DNA from: Acidimicrobiales bacterium
GTDB taxonomy: Bacteria; Actinomycetota; Acidimicrobiia; Acidimicrobiales; Bin134
DNA: 64,000 bases
Reading direction: 5' to 3'
Assembly (NCBI GenBank): GCA_965231915.1
Contig: OZ246892.1
Span: forward strand, 2,443,247 to 2,507,246
Shown here: piece by piece, positions 12,868-22,903 of the stretch
Numbering within the stretch: position 1 is the stretch's first letter
How the letters are laid out: the number at the start of each line of letters is the position of its first letter
The notes under the pieces: model-generated
Databases searched by the model: none
Told to the model about the DNA's origin: nothing
What the model saw: only the letters and a program-made list of their open reading frames with translations
Program-made: the position numbers and the translations under genes

Positions 12868-12988
12868 TGTGCGGCTCCGTCACGACGAGAAATCTGCCGC
12901 GTGATTCTAAGGTTCGCCGCACGAAGCCGCTCGTTTGCGCGTACGCTGACGGAGTTGAAAACAAGCGACAAGCATGAGAGGCGGGTCC

Positions 12989-14686
12989 ATGTCTTTTCCA
13001 TCCGATCTTGAGATCGCTCGCGGGGCGAATCTCCGTCCGCTGACCGAAATCGCCGAGGAGGCTGGCATCCCAACGGAGATGCTGGAGCCCTACGGGGCGG
13101 GCGCGGCCAAGATCAGCCTGGATGCGATCGAGGCGCTAGCCGACCGACCTAGAGCCCGTTATGTGGTGGTAACGGCCATCACTCCCACTCCGCTGGGCGA
13201 GGGCAAGACCACTACCACCGTGGGGCTGGGCCAGGGCTTCGGCCACATCAACAAGCGCGCCACCATTGCCATCCGCCAGCCCTCGCTGGGTCCGACGTTC
13301 GGCATCAAGGGCGGCGCGGCCGGCGGTGGCTACAGCCAGGTGGTACCCATGGAGCTGTTCAACCTCCACCTAACCGGCGACATGCACGCGGTGACCGCAG
13401 CTCACAACATGTGCTCGGCCATGCTCGATGCCCACATCTACCACGGCAACGAGTCGGGCCTAGATCTGCACAACATCACCTGGCGCCGGGTGGTGGACAT
13501 CAACGACCGGGCCTTGCGCAACATCGTCGTGGGTCTGGGCGGGCGCCTTGACGGCGTCCCCCGGGAGAGCGGCTTCGACATCACCGCCGCCTCCGAGGTT
13601 ATGGCCACCCTGGCGCTGGCCACATCGCTGTCGGACCTGCGGGCCCGGCTGGGCCGGATCGTGGTGGGCTACACCAAAGACGGCGACCCGGTGACCGCTG
13701 AAGACCTGAAGGCCGCCGGCGCCATGGCCGTACTGTTGAAGGACGCCCTCAAGCCCAACCTGATGCAGACCCTGGAGGGCGGTGCCGCCTTGGTGCACAC
13801 CGGGCCGTTTGGCAACATCGCCACCGGCAACTCCTCCATCGTGGCCGACCGCATCGCCATCCGTACCGGCGACTTCCTGGTGACCGAGGCCGGGTTCGGC
13901 GCCGACATGGGCGCTGAGCGGTTCTTCAACATCAAGTGCCGCTACTCGGGCATCGATCCCGACGCCGCGGTGATGGTGGCCACCGTGCGGGGGCTCAAGG
14001 CCCACTCCGGCAACCACCGGATCGTGGCCGGCCGACCCCTGCCCGAAGCACTGCTGGCCGAGAACCCCGACGAGGTGCACGCCGGAGGCGACAACCTCCG
14101 CAAGCAACTGTCCAACATGAAGGCCCACGGGGTGACCCCGGTGGTGGCCATAAACGCCTTCCCCGGCGACCACGACGCCGACCTGGCCGCCATCGCCGAG
14201 ATCGCCGACGAGTACGGTGCCCGCTGCGCGATCACCACCCACTTCTCCGACGGCGGTGCGGGGGCAGCCGAGTTGGCCGAGGCAGTGGCCGAGGCCTGCG
14301 AAGAACCCAGTTCGTTCAAGGTGCTGTACGAGGACGACTTGTCGCTCAAAGACAAGATCGCCGCGGTGGCCACCACCGTGTACGGCGCCGATGATGTGGA
14401 GTATTCGGCCACCGCCAACCGCCAGCTCAACACCTACGAGTCGGCCGGCTTCGGCCACCTCCCGGTGTGCATCGCCAAGACCCACCTGTCTATCTCGTCG
14501 GACCCCTCCCTCAAGGGTGCCCCCACCGGCTGGACCCTGCCGGTGCGGGAAGTGAGGGCCTCGGTGGGCGCCGGCTTCGTGTACCCCATCTGCGGCGACA
14601 TGCGCACCATGCCCGGCCTAGGCCGCCAACCCGCCGCCATGGGCATCGACCTCGACGAGAACGGCGAGATCGTCGGCCTGAGCTGA
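12989..14686 (+). CDS. fhs: formate--tetrahydrofolate ligase
   Basis: MSFPSDLEIA...VTAITPTPLGEGKTTTTVGLGQ...PVCIAKTHLSISSDP. Confidence 0.95.
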   Translation: MSFPSDLEIARGANLRPLTEIAEEAGIPTEMLEPYGAGAAKISLDAIEALADRPRARYVVVTAITPTPLGEGKTTTTVGLGQGFGHINKRATIAIRQPSLGPTFGIKGGAAGGGYSQVVPMELFNLHLTGDMHAVTAAHNMCSAMLDAHIYHGNESGLDLHNITWRRVVDINDRALRNIVVGLGGRLDGVPRESGFDITAASEVMATLALATSLSDLRARLGRIVVGYTKDGDPVTAEDLKAAGAMAVLLKDALKPNLMQTLEGGAALVHTGPFGNIATGNSSIVADRIAIRTGDFLVTEAGFGADMGAERFFNIKCRYSGIDPDAAVMVATVRGLKAHSGNHRIVAGRPLPEALLAENPDEVHAGGDNLRKQLSNMKAHGVTPVVAINAFPGDHDADLAAIAEIADEYGARCAITTHFSDGGAGAAELAEAVAEACEEPSSFKVLYEDDLSLKDKIAAVATTVYGADDVEYSATANRQLNTYESAGFGHLPVCIAKTHLSISSDPSLKGAPTGWTLPVREVRASVGAGFVYPICGDMRTMPGLGRQPAAMGIDLDENGEIVGLS

Positions 14687-14747: not shown

Positions 14748-17033
14748 ATGACACCGCGTGCCGGAAATCTCTTGGTCTTGGTCGGCACCTTGGTGATTCT
14801 CTCCGTCGGGGTGGCGGGTTGCGGCGCTGACAACTCCCAACCCGCAGCCCATCAGCCCGGCACCATTGCTACCGTCGCTCCCACGGCTGAATCCACTGTT
14901 CTGCCCAGCGCGTTTCCAACAGAACTCCCTACGCCGATTGCCGCACCTGCTTCGACACCGATACCTTCTCTATCAGCCACTCCCCTTCCAACTCCAATGT
15001 CGAGTCCAGATACGGCCCTTGGCCCTACGGTGGACAATTCAGAGGACTCACCTTTCCAATCCGTATCCGCTGGGGAAGACCATGTTTGTGGCCTCCGAGC
15101 AAACGGAACGGCCCATTGCTGGGGAGACAATTCACGCGGCCAACTAAATGTCCCCAATCATCTATTCCACTCAGTCTTTGCGGGCAATGGACACACCTGC
15201 GGACTACTCGCCGATAGCACGGTGGACTGTTGGGGAGGAGCATTCGAATACGAGAACTCTGAATATGCGCTTATTGAGCCTGATGGTTTGTTCCTAGATA
15301 TTTCGGCTAGGTCGAGTCAAGCATGTGGAGTGAAGATAGATCACTCCATACTGTGTTGGGGTAGTGAAGGCGGACGGGGCCAAGAAAGTTACAACTGGGA
15401 CCTTCTGGACCGGTTTGAATACGAAGCTGTCTTCGCAGGGGACGGCGAGACTTGCGGGCTGCGCTTTGACTCTCGAATGGTCTGCTGGGGGCAAAGACAT
15501 GTCCGGGCATGGAGCGGCCCTCCAGAAGGATCACACTTCACCACTGTCTCGACAGGCCAAGACCGCCACTGCGGACTGCTGGCGAACAAGAGAATTGTCT
15601 GCTGGGGTAGCACTTATTCCGGTGTGGCCCTCATTCCTGAAGGGCAATATATCGACGTCTCAAGTGGCGAAGACTTTGTTTGCGCGGTGCGGAGCGACCA
15701 AAGCATCATCTGCTTTGACAACTATGCCCCGAAAGTCGTTGCGCACATCTCTGGCCAATACGAGGCAGTGTCCGTGGGTGGGGCTCACTATTGCGGCTTG
15801 AGGGTAGACGGTACAATCGATTGCTGGAGCGGCGCATACGGGGGGCAAACTGAAGCCCCAGACGGCCAATTTGTCCACATCGCATCAGCAGGATCGGGTA
15901 CCTGTGCAGTTAGCACTGAATCTCAGGCGATGTGCTGGGGTTACGGAAGCAATCAGGAGGCAACCACAACAGGTGCCTATGTTGAAGTCGCGACCAGCGA
16001 CATCATGTCATGCGGTTTACGGGAGGACACAACAATTTCTTGCTGGAGCTCTCAGTATTTTGAGAGTGTCGACGTAGGTGAAGGAGAAATAGAAGTCAAG
16101 AGAGCCTTTGGATGGAGATCAACTTGCCACTTATCCTCAAGTGGGCATATTTCCTGTTTTGGAGACATTGCAGGTCCACCGGCCGCAATTCTCACCCCAC
16201 CTTCAGGCCCTCACATTGATCTCTTCATGGGAACCAGCTATGGCTGTGCATTGCAAGCCGACGGCAATGTGGATTGTTGGGGAGCGCACAATTGCTCCGA
16301 CCGAGAGTGCCTTGAGACGGTGCCAGACTATGAAGATGCTCCCCCGGGTATCTACACAAGATTCCCTGAAATGGATGTTGCCCCACCTTGGGGAATTGAA
16401 GGGATATGCGCATTGCGGGAGGACAAACAGGTTGTCTGCTGGAACTACGACCTGCCCGGCCTTCCGTCAGGAGAGTTCGAAAAACTCTCAGCAGGTTCAG
16501 AGCACTATTGCGGACTCAAGACTGACCGAACGGTTGCCTGCTGGGGCAACAATGGCTACGGCCAAACTATGGCTCCTAGCGGCGAGTATATGGATGTTGT
16601 TGCCAAAGTCGAGCATTCCTGCGCGCAACGAGCTGATTGGTCAGTCATTTGCTGGGGCCGTGGGTTCGATGACATGCCGGACCAGACTGAAGATTCGTTT
16701 GTGCAGATTGTCGGCAGCAAGACGCACATATGCGCACTGAAATCAGACGGGTCCAGTAGGTGCTGGGGATCAGGAGACGAGCCGCCCTTGGACAATGGCA
16801 CTGCTTCTCCCAATGACGAGACTTATACGGCGATCTCGACCGGAACCCATCATGCGTGCGGCCTGCTAGCTGATAGAGACGCAGACTGCTGGGGCGACAA
16901 CACCTACGGGCAAGCGAGTCCACCCGCTAGTCAATTCACATCGATCGCTGCCGGCTCGCTTCACACGTGCGGCCTGCGACCTGACCAAACAGTGGAGTGC
17001 TGGGGAATCCAGCCTGTCGTTCACATCGAATAG
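14748..17033 (+). CDS. RCC1-like repeat (beta-propeller) lipoprotein
   Basis: Lipobox SVGVAGCGADN, a Pro/Thr/Ser linker, then about 17 short repeats ending in C-W-G/S (HVCGLRANGTAHCWGDNSRGQ, HTCGLLADSTVDCWG, ...). The gene is visibly AT-richer than its neighbours. Confidence 0.85.
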   Translation: MTPRAGNLLVLVGTLVILSVGVAGCGADNSQPAAHQPGTIATVAPTAESTVLPSAFPTELPTPIAAPASTPIPSLSATPLPTPMSSPDTALGPTVDNSEDSPFQSVSAGEDHVCGLRANGTAHCWGDNSRGQLNVPNHLFHSVFAGNGHTCGLLADSTVDCWGGAFEYENSEYALIEPDGLFLDISARSSQACGVKIDHSILCWGSEGGRGQESYNWDLLDRFEYEAVFAGDGETCGLRFDSRMVCWGQRHVRAWSGPPEGSHFTTVSTGQDRHCGLLANKRIVCWGSTYSGVALIPEGQYIDVSSGEDFVCAVRSDQSIICFDNYAPKVVAHISGQYEAVSVGGAHYCGLRVDGTIDCWSGAYGGQTEAPDGQFVHIASAGSGTCAVSTESQAMCWGYGSNQEATTTGAYVEVATSDIMSCGLREDTTISCWSSQYFESVDVGEGEIEVKRAFGWRSTCHLSSSGHISCFGDIAGPPAAILTPPSGPHIDLFMGTSYGCALQADGNVDCWGAHNCSDRECLETVPDYEDAPPGIYTRFPEMDVAPPWGIEGICALREDKQVVCWNYDLPGLPSGEFEKLSAGSEHYCGLKTDRTVACWGNNGYGQTMAPSGEYMDVVAKVEHSCAQRADWSVICWGRGFDDMPDQTEDSFVQIVGSKTHICALKSDGSSRCWGSGDEPPLDNGTASPNDETYTAISTGTHHACGLLADRDADCWGDNTYGQASPPASQFTSIAAGSLHTCGLRPDQTVECWGIQPVVHIE

Positions 17034-17139
17034 CTGATCCACCCACTACCAGTCTGCTTCCACTCTCCAACCTGACCGGGAAACAACGGCGCAGGGCAGA
17101 TAGGCTTAATCGACCTCAGGGTGCCTCTGGGGGAAGGGG

Positions 17140-19065
17140 GTGTACATGGCGAGGCGGGAACGTTTGACCGTGCCGATGGTGCGGGACAACGGAAGCCTGC
17201 GGGAAGCGACGTGGGACGAGGCCCTGTCGCGAGCCGCGACTGGATTCAACCAGGTGCTCTCCGAGCATGGGCCGCAGGCGTTCGGGATGTTCAGCTGCTC
17301 AAAGGCCACCAACGAGATGAACTACATCGCCCAGAAGTTCATTCGCACGGTGGTGGGCTCCAACAACATCGACTCCTGCAACCGAACTTGACACGCTCCT
17401 TCGGTCGTCGGTCTGGCGACAGTGTTCGGAGCGGGAGGGGGCACTAGCTCCTACCAGGAGATCGAGGAAACCGACGTAATCCTTCTGTGGGGATCCAACG
17501 CCCGCGAGGCCCATCCCATCTTCTTCCACCACCTGCTCAAGGGCCTCGACAACGGCGCCCGCATGTACTGCGTCGACCCCCGCTATACCTCCTCGGCCCG
17601 CTTCGCCGATGTATGGGTGGGCATCGACGTGGGCACCGACATCGCCCTGGCCAACGGTATCGGCCGCGAGATCATTAGGGCTGGCCTGGCCAATCAGGAA
17701 TTCATCGCTCACTCCACCCAGGGTTTTGAGGCCTACACCGCCTCGGTGGAGCCGTTCACTCCCGATGCGGTAGCTGCCATTTGCGGTATTCCCCCCGAGG
17801 CCGTGGTGGAGATGGCCCACGCCTACGCCACTGCCGACAAAGCCCAGATCCTGTGGACCCTGGGCATAACCGAACACCACAACGCGGTCGACAACGTCTT
17901 GTCGCTGTGCAACCTGGCCCTGCTTACCGGCCATGTGGGGCGGTGGGGATCGGGCCTAGTGCCTCTGCGGGGGCAGAACAATGTGCAGGGCGGGGGCGAC
18001 ATGGGGGCCATTCCCAACAAGTTCCCCGGCTTTGCCAGCGTGGATGATCCTGACCACCAAGCCCGGTTCGAGGCTGCCTACGGCCGGTCGCTCAACCCGG
18101 TGCCAGGCTGGCATCTCACGCTGATGTTCGAGGCCATGGAGCAGGGCGACCTGCGGGCGCTGTATGTGATCGGCGAGAACCCGGCCGATTCCGAGGCCGA
18201 TGTGATCCACGCCCGGGCCCAAATGGAAAGCCTCGACATTCTGGTGGTGCAGGACATTTTGATGACCCGCACCGCGGAGATGGCCGACGTGGTTCTGCCC
18301 GCCTCGGTGGCCTGGGCGGAAAGCAACGGCACCGTCACCTCAAGCGAACGCCGGGTGCAGCGGGTGCGCCCAGCGGTGTCGCCCCCCGGCCAAGCCCGCC
18401 ACGACATTGACATCTTGTGCGACATGGCCGAGGCCATGGGTGACGAACTCGGCCCGCGGGATCCGGAGGCCGCCTGGGACGAGCTGCGCTCTTTGTCGTC
18501 GATGCACGGGGGCATGGCCTGGGAGCGCCTGGAGGCTGCTGGCGGACTGCAATGGCCGTGCCCCGACGAGGATCACCCTGGCAGCCCGTTGCTCCACGGC
18601 TGGCTGTGGGCTGATGATTTGGAAGGCCACGACCCGGCCCCCTTCTCGGTGCTTGAGCACGAGGGACCGACCGAGGAGTTGAGCGAGGAGTTCCCCCTGC
18701 GGCTCACCACGGGACGGGCTCTGGACTCCTATAACACCGGTGTGCAGAGCGGGAACTATGACTCACCGCTGCGGTTTGCCGGGCTTGACCTGAATCCGGC
18801 AGATGCGGCCGCACTGGGTATCGCCGATGGCGACCGGGTGAGGGTCTGCTCCCCCCGTGGTTCGGTGGAGATGAATGCCCGACTGGCGTCGAGCCTGCCC
18901 GCTGGGCTTGCTTTCACCACCCTGCACCAACCCGAGCTGATCGATGTCAACGTGCTCACCAACCCCGACTGGGACCCCAAATCTGGCACCGCCGAGTTCA
19001 AGGCGGCCGCCGTGAGGGTTGAGCTGGTCGAAGCCCCCGAGACTGCGGGGGCCACCGTTGGCTGA
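17140..19065 (+). CDS. fdhA: formate dehydrogenase alpha subunit, molybdopterin part only, with TGA-selenocysteine at 17389..17391
   Basis: ORFs 17140..17391 and 17422..19065 are in frame. The junction ...NNIDSCNRT-U-HAPSVVGLATVFGAGGG matches the FdhF Sec site (CARV-U-HGPSVAGL). GGAAGGGGG lies upstream of the GTG 17140 / ATG 17146 start. MGD-binding blocks follow (GSNAREAHPIFF, ADVVLPASVAWAESNGTVTSSERR). Confidence 0.85.
17404..17420 (+). promoter_or_regulatory. SECIS hairpin (fdhF-type)
   Basis: GUCGUC-GGUCU-GGCGAC: a 6-bp stem and GGUCU loop starting 13 nt after the UGA. Position and loop match the E. coli fdhF mini-SECIS (GGUUGCAGGUCUGCACC), as I recall it. Confidence 0.7.
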
Positions 19066-20814
19066 CCTGCACTTTGGTGACGACCAGCCCACAGATGCCG
19101 AACGGGCCGCCGTCGATGCTGTAGTGCCCCTGGTTGACGCCGCCACTGTCACCGAGACCGAGCGATTGGTGCGAGGGGGCCGCTCCCGCCGACAGGAACT
19201 CCGTCACCTCTTGCTGCCCGTGCTGCACTCGCTTCAACACGAGATCGGCTGGATCAGCCCTGGTGGATTGAACTGCGCCGCCGAGCGGCTGGGGGTGCCG
19301 CCGGCCGAAGCCTACGGCGTGGCTACGTTTTACGAGCTCCTTCGTACCACTGATCCTGGGCACCGAGATGACGTCGTCCATGTGTGCGTCGACCCCACGT
19401 GTGCCATAGCTGGAAATGACGAGCTGCGGGCTTCGTTGGAGGCCAGCGGGGCCAGGGTTCACGCCAGCCCCTGTCTGGGCCAGTGCGAGCGAGGTCCGGC
19501 CCTATTCATACAGGGAGTTGGCCGACCTGACCGAGTGCCGGCCGAAGACGACGAGGATTTTCGATTGCCCCAAGCCGGCCACCCGGGTCTGAGGGTGCTG
19601 CGTCGGGTGGGCGAAGTCGATCCCACTTCCCTGGACTCGTACCGAGAACACGGCGGCTACCAGGCCCTAGCCCAGGCCATCGAGATTGGGCCAGACGCTG
19701 TCATCGCTGCGCTGTCGGAGTCAGGTTTGTCCGGCCGGGGCGGGGCTGCTTTCCCCACCGGCATCAAATGGCGGGCCGTGGCCGATGAGCCCGGACCCGA
19801 CAAGCATGTGGTGGCCAACTGCGACGAGTCGGAACCGGGCACTTTCAAAGACCGCATCGTCTGCGAGCACGACCCGTTTGCTCTTATCGAGTCGATGACC
19901 ATTGCCGGGCTGGCCACCGGCTCGCCTCACGGCTGGATCTACATTCGGGGGGAGTACCCTCGGGCCACCGCCCGCCTCGAGGGCGCCATCGCCCAAACCC
20001 GGGCCGCCGGTCTGCTGGGCGACGACGTGGCTGGCAGCGGGCAGCGCTTCGACATCGAGCTGCGCCGAGGGGCGGGGGCCTATATCTGTGGCGAGGAGAC
20101 CGCCCTGTTCAACTCCATCGAGGGATTCCGGGGAGAGCCCCGCAACAAGCCTCCCTTCCCCACCACTCACGGCCTGTTCTCCCAGCCCACCGCCATCAAC
20201 AATCCCTGAGACCCTCATCAACGTGCTCGACATCGTGACCGACGGCCCCGAGGCCTATCGCTCGGTGGGCACCGAGCGCTCCCCCGGCACCCGGCTGTTC
20301 TGCCTGTCGGGCCGGGTAGCGGTACCTGGCCTTTACGAGGTGCCGTTCGGCACCACGCTGGGGGAGCTTGCTCGAATTGGCCGGCGGTCCGGTCGGTTCA
20401 CCCTGGCCGCGGTGCTGTCTGGGCGGCGCCGCTGGAGTATTCGTCGGTCCCGACGCCCTCGACATGCCCCTCACCCTGGAAGACGCCCGGGAGGCCGGTG
20501 CCACCTTGGGTTCTGGGGTCGTGACCGTGTTCGATGACACCGTTGACATGCAGGCCGTGGTGGTCCGCATAGCCGAGTTCTTCCGAGATGAATCGTGCGG
20601 GCAGTGCGTGCCCTGCCGTGTGGGCACCCAGCGCCAACACGAGGTACTGGTGGAGTTGCAAAGCTCCGGCCAGCCCCTGGCCCCCCAGCGGGCCGAGCTC
20701 ATCGACGACATGGCCCTGGCAATGGTGGACGCCTCCATCTGCGGCCTGGGCCACACCGCGGCTTCCGCGGTGCGCTCCGCTCTGGCGCTGGGCCTGATAG
20801 GAAATAGCTTGTGA
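19019..20814 (+). pseudogene. NuoE-like (2Fe-2S) / NuoF-like (FMN, NAD, 4Fe-4S) fusion, FDH diaphorase subunit, interrupted by about 4 frameshifts
   Basis: Recognisable sequence runs through three frames: ORF 19019..20209 (...GRGGAAFPTGIKW...TAINNP*), ORF 19902..20537 (ETLINVLDIV...GTTLGEL) and ORF 20368..20814 (LELAGGPVG...LGGAAGVFVGPDAL...ESCGQCVPCR). Indels lie near 20205, 20370, 20397 and 20418. A likely TTG start at 19058 overlaps the fdhA stop. Confidence 0.7.
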
Positions 20815-21650
20815 GCGGCGTGGCCACCGAGACAGCGGTCACCATTCGGGTCGACGACCAAGAGGTCGCCGTGCCCGTGGGGGCCACCATACTCGACGCC
20901 TGCAACGCCGCCGGGGTGGAGACTCCCACCATCTGCTACGGACCCACCCTCACCCCGGTGAACGTGTGCCGAGTATGCGTGGTGGAACTCGACGGCAGCC
21001 GGGCCCTGGTTCCCTCCTGCTCGCGCCCCGCAGAGGAGGGAATGGTGGTGCACACCGACAGCGAGCGGGTGCGCCACAGCCGCAAGATGGTGTTGGAGTT
21101 CCTGGCCACCGGTGTCGACTTGTCTCAGGCCGATGAACTCGGCCACTGGGCTGAGCACTACCGGGCCGACCCCGACCGCTATGTCCCCGGTGGCGAGACC
21201 ATGAACGAGCCTGTACGGGTGCAAGACAACCTCTACATCCGCGACTACGACAAGTGCGTGCTGTGCTACCGCTGTGTGGAGGCCTGCGGCGACGACGCCC
21301 AGCACACCTACGCCATCTCGGTAGCCGGCCGGGGCTTCGGCGCCCGCATCTCCACCGAGTTCGACGTCACCCTGCCCGACTCAGCCTGCGTGTACTGCGG
21401 CAACTGCGTGGCCGTGTGCCCCACCAACGCCCTCCAGTTCAAGACGGAGTTCGACCTCCGCCAAGCCGACGACTGGCGCCCCGAAGACCAGACCGTCACC
21501 CAAACCGTCTGCTCCTACTGCGGCGTGGGCTGCAACCTCGAACTCCACGTGCAAGACAACCAAATCGTCAAGTGCACCTCCCCCGACGACCACGACGTCA
21601 CCCAAGGCAACCTCTGCATCAAAGGCCGCTTCGGCTGGAACTACGTGTAG
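20811..21650 (+). CDS. Fe-S subunit equal to the N-terminal (NuoG-like 2Fe-2S, 4Fe-4S and MoCo-domain 4Fe-4S) part of canonical NAD-dependent FDH alpha
   Basis: The GTG start overlaps the upstream stop (TTGTGA). Motifs present: ICYGPTLTPVNVCRVCVVE, CVLCYRCVEAC, CVYCGNCVAVCP, CSYCGVGCNL...LCIKGRFGWNYV*. It ends exactly where the 17140 ORF sequence (RERLTVPMVRD) begins in canonical enzymes. Confidence 0.85.
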   Translation: MSGVATETAVTIRVDDQEVAVPVGATILDACNAAGVETPTICYGPTLTPVNVCRVCVVELDGSRALVPSCSRPAEEGMVVHTDSERVRHSRKMVLEFLATGVDLSQADELGHWAEHYRADPDRYVPGGETMNEPVRVQDNLYIRDYDKCVLCYRCVEACGDDAQHTYAISVAGRGFGARISTEFDVTLPDSACVYCGNCVAVCPTNALQFKTEFDLRQADDWRPEDQTVTQTVCSYCGVGCNLELHVQDNQIVKCTSPDDHDVTQGNLCIKGRFGWNYV

Positions 21651-21751
21651 GGCAATGTAGGATTTAGGCATGGTCCAGCTGCTCGTCCTACAGCAGGACG
21701 CCCTTGCCAATTTGGATATGATGAGAATAGACTGAAAGTTATCTAAAATAT

Positions 21752-22321
21752 ATGAGTGCTACTGAAACCAGATTGGCTGACACAAAGCTGTTGACCGCCG
21801 ACGACCTGCTGCGGTTGAGCGCCCAAGGCGTGCGCGGCGAGTTGGTGAGGGGAGTGCTTCACGAGACGATGGCATCAGGACACCGACACGGCAAGATCGC
21901 TGTCAATCTCGTCATGGAGCTGGGCAACTTCGTAAGGCCCAGGAAGTTAGGGACGCTCGTTGCCTCCGACTCGGGCGTGTGGCTGGAGCGCGACCCCGAC
22001 ACCGTGCGTGAGCCCGACGTGGCATTCACCTCAGCAGCGAAGATCCCACTGGATGCGGAGATCGACGGCTATGCCGATGTCGTCCCCGACCTAGTGGTGG
22101 AGATCGTCTCGCCTAGCGACAGCCGCCGCTGGGCCCGCGACCGAGCACAGATGTGGCTCGACCACGGTGCCCCACTGGTCTGGATAGTCCACCCCGATAC
22201 CCGCACCATCGACGTGTACCACCCCGGCGCAGCTGCCATGACCCTGGGCGAAAACGACTCCCTCAATGGCCAAGACGTCCTCCCCGGCTTCACCTGCTCT
22301 GTCAGAACCATCTTCGCCTGA
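21752..22321 (+). CDS. Uma2 (DUF820) family endonuclease
   Basis: LTADDLLRL...GELVRGVL...PDVAF...VPDLVVEIVSPSD...LVWIVHPDTRTIDVY is the Uma2 pattern. An AT-rich leader precedes it. Confidence 0.85.
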   Translation: MSATETRLADTKLLTADDLLRLSAQGVRGELVRGVLHETMASGHRHGKIAVNLVMELGNFVRPRKLGTLVASDSGVWLERDPDTVREPDVAFTSAAKIPLDAEIDGYADVVPDLVVEIVSPSDSRRWARDRAQMWLDHGAPLVWIVHPDTRTIDVYHPGAAAMTLGENDSLNGQDVLPGFTCSVRTIFA

Positions 22322-22456
22322 TGCCATTGGCGGGCTCCCGAACGAAGAAGCCTGATGGCAGGGCTACAGAGTTGAACGGGATCCCGCCGGGCAGTACCGA
22401 TTGAAGCCGCCGAGGCGCATTGGGGATGGAATATCAGCGAGGGGACCGACTCCCGC

Positions 22457-22903
22457 CTACTCCCCAGTGGCCCAGTACCGCTGAATCCGCTCGATGGCCT
22501 CTTGCCGCGTCATTTCGCTCAGTTGGGCTTCGGAGAGGCCCACCCTGTGCTTCAGCAGATAGAGCAAATCAGCCGGGATTGATTCTGCCGACATTGGCCT
22601 GGTCCCCCGAGCTGGCGGAACGCCGTCTTGGACACATCGCCAGAACTCTTCAGCGCTCACTTTGAGCTGGTCGCGCAGGACGTGTGCCCACAGGGCATCG
22701 CCATAGGTGGTGCGATCAGGCGGGCTGGATACCCGCGTCCTCAAGACATCGCCGTCAGGCATCTCTAGCTCATAGGTCTCATGATGCGTGCTTCGCCTGC
22801 CGACGGCAGAGCGGACCAGCCTCCAACCCTCAACCTCGCAGAACCGGACATGATCACGCCGAGTGGGCGCTGGAAAACTCAAGAAGTCCTGCCGAACGCC
22901 CAA
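22457..22903 (-). CDS. HicA/YcfA-like toxin-domain protein with a C-terminal extension
   Basis: RDHVRFCEVEGWRLVRSAVGRRSTHHETYELEMPDGDVLRTRVS resembles HicA-type 'GW..vr..gsHh' cores. It overlaps the upstream antitoxin-like gene by 25 nt. Confidence 0.55.
   Translation of the reverse strand: MGVRQDFLSFPAPTRRDHVRFCEVEGWRLVRSAVGRRSTHHETYELEMPDGDVLRTRVSSPPDRTTYGDALWAHVLRDQLKVSAEEFWRCVQDGVPPARGTRPMSAESIPADLLYLLKHRVGLSEAQLSEMTRQEAIERIQRYWATGE

Follow-up and report, generated by a model that had tools for sequence, protein, structure and literature searches.

A predicted selenocysteine-containing, NAD(P)+-linked formate dehydrogenase encoded with a divided alpha subunit and a rotated gene order in an Acidimicrobiales bacterium

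The DNA analysed here, referred to as the window, is a stretch of 64,000 nucleotides from an Acidimicrobiales bacterium (GenBank assembly GCA_965231915.1, contig OZ246892.1, positions 2,443,247 to 2,507,246, forward strand). It contains a three-gene operon related to NAD-linked formate dehydrogenase (FDH). In this operon, the counterpart of the FDH alpha subunit is encoded in two pieces: a molybdopterin-binding catalytic subunit (MoCo subunit) at the 5' end and an iron-sulfur (Fe-S) subunit at the 3' end, with a diaphorase gene between them. The features of the operon, in window coordinates, are as follows.

17129..17137, + strand: Shine-Dalgarno (SD)-like element GGAAGGGGG, read from the sequence, 8 nt 5' of the ATG at 17146
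17146..19065, + strand: MoCo subunit gene, predicted catalytic subunit with bis-molybdopterin guanine dinucleotide (bis-MGD), 639 aa including selenocysteine (Sec), without an Fe-S domain; the product starts MARRERLTVPMVR
17389..17391, + strand: in-frame TGA read as Sec at the catalytic position (SCNRT-U-HAPSVVGL)
17395..17432, + strand: hairpin resembling a selenocysteine insertion sequence (SECIS), with a 6-bp apical stem (17404-17420), a GGUCU loop and a lower stem, from folding
19058..20814, + strand: NuoE-NuoF fusion gene (NuoEF), an Fdh1B-like diaphorase; the Pfam domains 2Fe-2S_thioredx, Complex1_51K, SLBB and NADH_4Fe-4S are found on pieces of it
20203..20418, + strand: four window-specific insertions in the NuoF part (+1 near 20203, +1 near 20368, +2 near 20397-20400, +1 near 20417)
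20811..21650, + strand: Fe-S subunit gene, 279 aa, with predicted sites (Pfam) for one [2Fe-2S], two ferredoxin-type [4Fe-4S] and the proximal [4Fe-4S] cluster (A1/FS0)

The MoCo half carries the Pfam domains Molybdopterin (PF00384, residues 8-431, 1.5e-71) and Molydop_binding (PF01568, residues 520-623, 4.9e-24), and it matches positions 48-672 of the NCBIfam model TIGR01591 (Fdh-alpha), with a weak match to TIGR03129 as well. It is colinear with the FdsA, FdhF and FDH1 structures. In the alignment, the Sec-His pair of SCNRT-U-HAPSV and the Arg of PLRGQNNVQG fall in the active-site columns of FdsA and FdhF. The proximal [4Fe-4S] domain is not located on this polypeptide but forms the C-terminus of the separate Fe-S protein (Molybdop_Fe4S4, PF04879, residues 228-279). 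That protein also carries Fer2_4 and two 4Fe-4S motifs of the ferredoxin type, and it has 16 invariant Cys in four motifs. Its open reading frame ends ...LCIKGRFGWNYV (...KGRFGWNYV) and is closed by a TAG stop. The domains and the position of this stop agree with a preliminary description of the locus, made from the sequence, which had placed a separate Fe-S gene at 20811..21650 at the 3' end of the operon.

The same description called the break residue-exact, and the two halves, when joined, bear this out. Searched against the PDB sequences, the concatenate of the Fe-S and MoCo subunits aligns in one stretch to residues 25-937 of Rhodobacter capsulatus FdsA (6tg9_A, E 1.6e-163), and likewise in one stretch to 9wxb_B, a close FdsA homologue, and to the FDH1 alpha subunit of Methylorubrum extorquens (7vw6_A). 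Apart from an insertion of 3 residues, which derives from the start-codon residues, the alignment is regular at the joint. The Fe-S half takes up positions 1-48 of TIGR01591 (50.4 bits), and the model is thus cut at position 48. The natural boundary between the HoxU-like and FdhF-like parts lies at about residue 250 of FdsA (PMC7171172). The cut in the window is located ~50 residues past this boundary, after the FS0 domain.

The MoCo half had been described as a gene of its own at 17140..19065, starting (V)YMARRERLTVPMVR and preceded by an SD element. The domains, the N-terminal sequence and GGAAGGGGG, which forms an identical leader in the relative G010, support this, but two details change. 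The frame is not open under translation table 11, as an in-frame TGA occupies the catalytic Sec/Cys site. In addition, the start is likelier to be ATG 17146 than GTG 17140, because this ATG is kept in every genus member whereas one relative lacks the GTG. In the clade at large, an ATG is found 4-12 codons 5' of the RLTxPLVR motif. The gene between the halves matches the NuoE and NuoF models, as expected from its earlier assignment as a NuoE/F-like diaphorase, although its reading frame is broken in this genome. There is an overlap of 8 nt between its TTG start and the MoCo stop, and one of 4 nt, GTGA, between the GTG start of the Fe-S gene and the NuoEF stop. These stop/start overlaps mark the three genes as translationally coupled.

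At the catalytic position, related loci have TGA in 57 cases and TGC or TGT in 11 Streptomyces loci. The hairpin with the GGUCU loop lies 13 bases to the 3' side of the codon. When 22 Sec-type loci of many phyla are aligned, the loop does not vary and the stems persist, with compensatory changes in two pairs. The Cys-type Streptomyces genes, by contrast, use different synonymous codons at the hairpin loop. The support for the hairpin comes from this comparative alignment and not from single-sequence folding, where its energy is no better than that of shuffled sequences (z = 0.03), and an Rfam search over 16500-22500, SECIS families included, gave no match. The genome contains a tRNA-Sec gene (selC), selA (403.9 bits) and selB (276.6 bits), the latter two each above the cut-off, an FdhD-like gene, and selD (contig C1, 137479-138417, 357.6 bits). 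The selD gene has one in-frame TGA of its own, and its product, selenophosphate synthetase, is probably itself a selenoprotein here. The codon, the conserved hairpin and the set of selA, selB, selC and selD together identify TGA 17389 as a selenocysteine codon. Gene callers cut the MoCo gene at this position.

The split is a conserved trait. Of 24 genomes in the genus, 21 encode the Fe-S protein as a 280-codon open frame with 89-97% identity, and the order fhs (formate-tetrahydrofolate ligase), MoCo, NuoEF, Fe-S is found in all ten genus loci that were inspected. A wider set comprises 80 loci at 57-96% identity from species-representative genomes and three from public assemblies. Among these 83 loci, the order MoCo, NuoEF, Fe-S is present in the 72 that have enough flank, while contig ends truncate the remaining 11, and the Fe-S frame stops 0-41 residues past GRFGxxxV in every one. 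The survey of relatives that the preliminary description had proposed therefore finds its gene order genus-wide and in 72 of 72 informative loci. The opposite pattern, a contiguous gene in the relatives with a rearrangement in this genome only, was not seen, none of the 83 loci being fused.

Split-type operons occur in at least nine phyla. The hosts include Acidimicrobiia, Gaiellales, Thermoleophilia, Nocardioidaceae and eleven cultured Streptomyces strains (of the Cys type), as well as Acidobacteriota, Gemmatimonadota, Eremiobacterota, Chloroflexota, Bacillota and Planctomycetota. SCO6559-6562 of S. coelicolor is a candidate for a further cluster of this kind. Among 151 evenly sampled Acidimicrobiia genomes, the split type was found in ~36 and the fused type in ~7. 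The best 120 of at least 8000 matches in the protein search are all 276-307-aa proteins with the architecture of the Fe-S subunit; no exact copy of the window's Fe-S protein was found in public assemblies. The preliminary description did not include the wide spread of the design, the Sec codon or the frameshifted state of the diaphorase gene. One congener, G024, has a second, divergent cluster of fhs, MoCo, NuoEF and Fe-S genes at ~61% identity (contig C9; L039, 3281-9704). Its grouping with another Acidimicrobiia lineage on the tree suggests that it was acquired laterally. Three metagenome-assembled genomes labelled Gammaproteobacteria (L058), Verrucomicrobiales (L061) and Micrarchaeaceae archaeon (L106) carry operons that fall inside Acidimicrobiia or soil-bacterial subclades, a placement that points to either binning contamination or recent transfer.

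The origin of the split was examined with a maximum-likelihood tree of the Fe-S domain (275 columns), which included 88 split sequences together with fused forms. All 88 split sequences form one clade, with an SH-aLRT (approximate likelihood-ratio) support of 100 and a stem of 1.5 changes per site, and this clade is nested among the fused forms. Fused FdhA proteins reach 43% identity or less to the Fe-S half, and many of them are truncated by gene callers at their own Sec codon. The nearest fused relatives are encoded in operons of the order NuoE, NuoF, FdhA or NuoEF, FdhA. The same holds for L041, a fused copy from a different family within the taxonomic order. The tree thus indicates that the split design arose once from a fused NuoEF-FdhA operon. 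Because the split clade is nested in fused forms with this gene order, the present order very probably stems from a single cyclic rotation, in which the alpha gene was divided at the border of its Fe4S4 and Molybdopterin domains and the modules moved from NuoEF-FeS-MoCo to MoCo-NuoEF-FeS. The simplest route would be for the operon to have been duplicated in tandem, with both ends lost afterwards. The resulting design very probably went on to spread through at least nine phyla. The earlier proposal of an evolved fission and permutation, as opposed to a random disruption, is borne out by the shared break point and order, the single clade and the canonical order in the nearest fused relatives. 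Loss of the His-Cys3 [4Fe-4S] motif was considered as a trait specific to the split type and was ruled out. The motif is found in none of the 88 split Fe-S proteins, but 9 of the 22 fused relatives, the nearest among them, lack it too; its loss therefore preceded the fission.

From its gene content, the operon very probably encodes a cytoplasmic, NAD(P)+-linked, Sec-containing Mo/W-bis-MGD formate dehydrogenase made from three translationally coupled genes, with a split of single origin. The three products most likely join in one soluble enzyme. In such an enzyme, the MoCo subunit would hold the bis-MGD cofactor and the Sec/His/Arg site without any Fe-S cluster. The Fe-S subunit would supply the proximal [4Fe-4S] cluster (A1/FS0) in trans, together with two [4Fe-4S] clusters plus a single [2Fe-2S] cluster in a HoxU/NuoG-like arrangement, and the NuoE-NuoF fusion would contribute FMN and the site for NAD(H) along with a [2Fe-2S] and a [4Fe-4S] cluster. 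Electrons from formate would pass from Mo or W across the subunit interface to FS0, and from there through the two ferredoxin-type clusters, the [2Fe-2S] cluster and the NuoF cluster to FMN and NAD+. Since fhs is a conserved upstream neighbour and folD is nearby, the enzyme probably oxidises formate from the folate one-carbon pool, as judged from this gene neighbourhood.

Several observations weigh against this reading. The assembly into one complex, and a position of FS0 in trans within electron-transfer distance of the pterin, are predictions from the genes. The MoCo half by itself scores 615.7 bits on TIGR01591, under the curated cut-off of 666.25, because the first 47 model positions belong to another protein. 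The tree was built from a quick search on a 275-column domain and has long fused branches. As assembled, nuoEF of the window is not intact, its homologous reading being spread over three frames, and four errors in 215 bp would far exceed the average rate of the genome, which leaves some probability for a real mutation cluster.

With assembly predicted from the genes, there is room for the view that the three genes do not form one enzyme, so that the Fe-S and NuoEF proteins would act as an independent NADH:acceptor oxidoreductase and the MoCo protein would work alone, with another partner or substrate. Enzymes of the dimethyl sulfoxide (DMSO)-reductase family without FS0, such as DorA, TorA and BisC, do exist. 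However, the genes are strictly co-inherited in one order with stop/start overlaps across phyla, and the C-terminal Fe4S4 domain of the Fe-S protein is one that packs against the Molybdopterin domain in all homologues. The MoCo protein also retains the Sec/His/Arg triad of FDH, is closest to FdsA, FDH1 and FdhF, and is encoded next to fhs. We therefore regard separate enzymes as improbable. A technical origin of the split, in which misassembly, a genome-specific rearrangement or an inversion cut a fused fdhA and displaced one half, is far less probable still, to the point of being negligible. The window does come from a single contig of long-read style with local consensus errors. Nevertheless, 21 of 24 congeneric assemblies share the break point, order, stop/start overlaps and SD element, and so do 72 independent loci that come from many phyla and projects. 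Agreement among so many independent assemblies excludes that the split itself is a misassembly.

The frameshifts in nuoEF raise a different question, namely whether this genome's copy of the operon is a pseudogene cluster in decay, leaving the cell without NAD-linked FDH even though the split is ancestral. The homologous reading runs in frame 0 to ~20205, then in +1 and +2, and again in +1 and +2. All relatives checked have an intact single-frame gene of 583 aa, and the four insertions, which lie within 215 bp, are absent from seven congeners and two metagenome contigs. When metagenomes were scanned with a pattern for the frameshifted variant, just two relatives (92% identity) came up, and the gene is intact in both. 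Real decay would account for four uncompensated insertions that are private to this genome and not all within long homopolymers, with no other private frame-breaking indel in the conserved coding DNA of ~50 kb of the window, compared with two congeners. It would also fit the mobile insertions on both sides of the operon (an RCC1 gene on one side, Uma2 and a toxin-antitoxin islet on the other). On the other hand, the MoCo gene, the Fe-S gene, the SECIS-like hairpin and the rest of nuoEF are intact, and residues are conserved within each shifted frame. Similar lesions also occur elsewhere in this genome. ORF-versus-genome tblastn in both directions, with ~87,000 codons of G010 ORFs searched against this genome, revealed two +1 insertions 200 bp apart in murA (contig C1, 2732305 and 2732506) and one +1 insertion in an ABC-transporter gene (contig C1, 3179497), while the reverse search found no such frameshifts in G010. 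A screen based on the phase of third-position G+C (GC3) was dropped, as it was too insensitive and flagged mostly intergenic indels. All frame-breaking indels found relative to G010 are insertions in local clusters, one of them in the normally essential murA, and this pattern indicates a technical cause. We therefore consider consensus errors of the assembly the probable source of the nuoEF insertions, whereas a genuinely decaying operon is rather unlikely, though the least unlikely of the three alternatives.

Comparison with characterised enzymes supports the assignment of the operon to a soluble NAD-linked FDH and shows where the split differs. The tungsten-containing, NAD-dependent FDH1 of M. 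extorquens (Fdh1AB; PDB 7vw6, 7e5z) is likewise soluble and NAD-linked, and residues 69-985 of its alpha subunit are colinear with the Fe-S and MoCo subunits of the window. Its alpha subunit, however, is one polypeptide with Cys at the active site, whereas in the window alpha contains Sec and is divided into two polypeptides behind the Fe4S4 domain; the rotated gene order and the absence of the His-Cys3 cluster are further differences. The FDH1 beta subunit is also a NuoE-NuoF fusion, as Laukel et al. reportedly described in 2003. With the FdsGBACD enzymes of R. capsulatus and Cupriavidus necator (PDB 6tg9, 6tga), the window would share the chain of cofactors (bis-MGD, A1, A2, A3, A5, B cluster, FMN), and FdsA is the best full-length structural homologue of the joined Fe-S and MoCo subunits by sequence. 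In contrast to the window, FdsA is fused (958 aa) and contains Cys, FdsG (NuoE) and FdsB (NuoF) are separate proteins, and the operon includes the accessory genes fdsC and fdsD. In R. capsulatus, cluster A4 (His117, Cys121, Cys124, Cys130) is off the electron path and located at the dimer interface (PMC7171172). This cluster of FdsA is the one missing from all 88 split Fe-S proteins.

In HylABC-FdhF2 of Gottschalkia acidurici, the NuoG/HoxU-like protein HylA is encoded apart from a Sec-containing catalytic subunit (summarised in PMC5736913). The separation of such an Fe-S protein from a Sec catalytic subunit resembles the window, but the cut between HylA and FdhF2 lies at the HoxU/FdhF boundary, so that FdhF2 retains the proximal [4Fe-4S] cluster that the window places on the Fe-S protein. 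In addition, further ferredoxin domains are present on HylB, and HylC is a protein of its own, whereas in the window NuoE is fused to NuoF without extra Fer4 domains. The MoCo subunit has no Fe-S motif, which sets the window apart from bifurcating FDHs of the HylABC-FdhF2 type. Another division of an FdhF-like catalytic unit is found in formylmethanofuran dehydrogenase, where it is said to be split into two polypeptides, FwdB and FwdD (reportedly by Wagner et al. in 2016). Unlike in the window, that fission is at the other end, at the C-terminal Molydop_binding cap, and FS0 stays with the Molybdopterin domain. To our knowledge, in characterised members of the DMSO-reductase superfamily that have a proximal [4Fe-4S] cluster, the cluster is always carried by the cofactor-binding polypeptide; in characterised relatives, it is the N-terminal domain of the catalytic polypeptide. 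No description of the split architecture was found in the full-text literature, whose coverage was incomplete, so that an earlier description is possible. Two candidates for prior descriptions, PMC7325909 and PMC5736913, were rejected, as they report fused FdhA or unrelated splits. By its domains and operon, the conserved split design is a variant of the known Fdh1AB/FdsABG class of enzymes, and the copy in the window is an ordinary member of it.

A bolder interpretation, which we offer only tentatively, is that the split operons represent an unrecognised major class of soluble FDH with FS0 supplied in trans, whose rotated gene order is perhaps adaptive for selenoprotein synthesis. With the Sec gene first and the coupled genes after it, the output of diaphorase and Fe-S protein would be tied to UGA decoding. 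Failed decoding would set free a harmless peptide of 82 residues, in place of an Fe-S fragment of 360 residues that could poison complexes. The Cys-type enzymes of Streptomyces would then have inherited the gene order.

In an FDH divided in this way, electrons leaving the metal site have to pass from one subunit to another in their first transfer step. The split type is the commonest NAD-type FDH among the sampled Acidimicrobiia and is also present in soil and marine lineages of many phyla, and its presence in cultured Streptomyces makes the design testable at the bench. Public annotation names the Fe-S gene only '2Fe-2S iron-sulfur cluster-binding protein' or 'YjgC-like'. Because of this vague naming, and because the MoCo gene scores below the model cut-off and is cut at the Sec codon, formate oxidation can be missed or misread in metabolic reconstructions of these lineages. 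A catalytic subunit that carries only the cofactor may also be of interest for the engineering of CO2-reducing FDHs.

Two genes on the 5' side of the operon complete the picture of the locus.

12974..14686, + strand: fhs, upstream neighbour, directly 5' of the MoCo gene in all genus loci
14748..17033, + strand: gene for an RCC1-repeat protein of 761 aa (RCC1_2 x8, Pfam), between fhs and the FDH operon

The RCC1 gene has a G+C content of 0.52-0.57, compared with 0.65-0.69 in its flanks, and is present in this genome only, the fhs-fdh spacers of the relatives being without it. The same spacer contains an insert of ~1.2 kb in G001 and one of ~3 kb in G022, the latter with a duplicated fhs 3' end adjoining the MoCo gene, and it looks like an insertion hot spot. 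A scan for terminators and promoters gave nothing usable. On the 3' side, the segment 21752-23289, between the FDH operon and folD, contains a gene for a Uma2-family endonuclease followed, on the minus strand, by genes for a Phd-like antitoxin and a 148-aa protein without a Pfam match. The Uma2 gene occupies the same site in several congeners.

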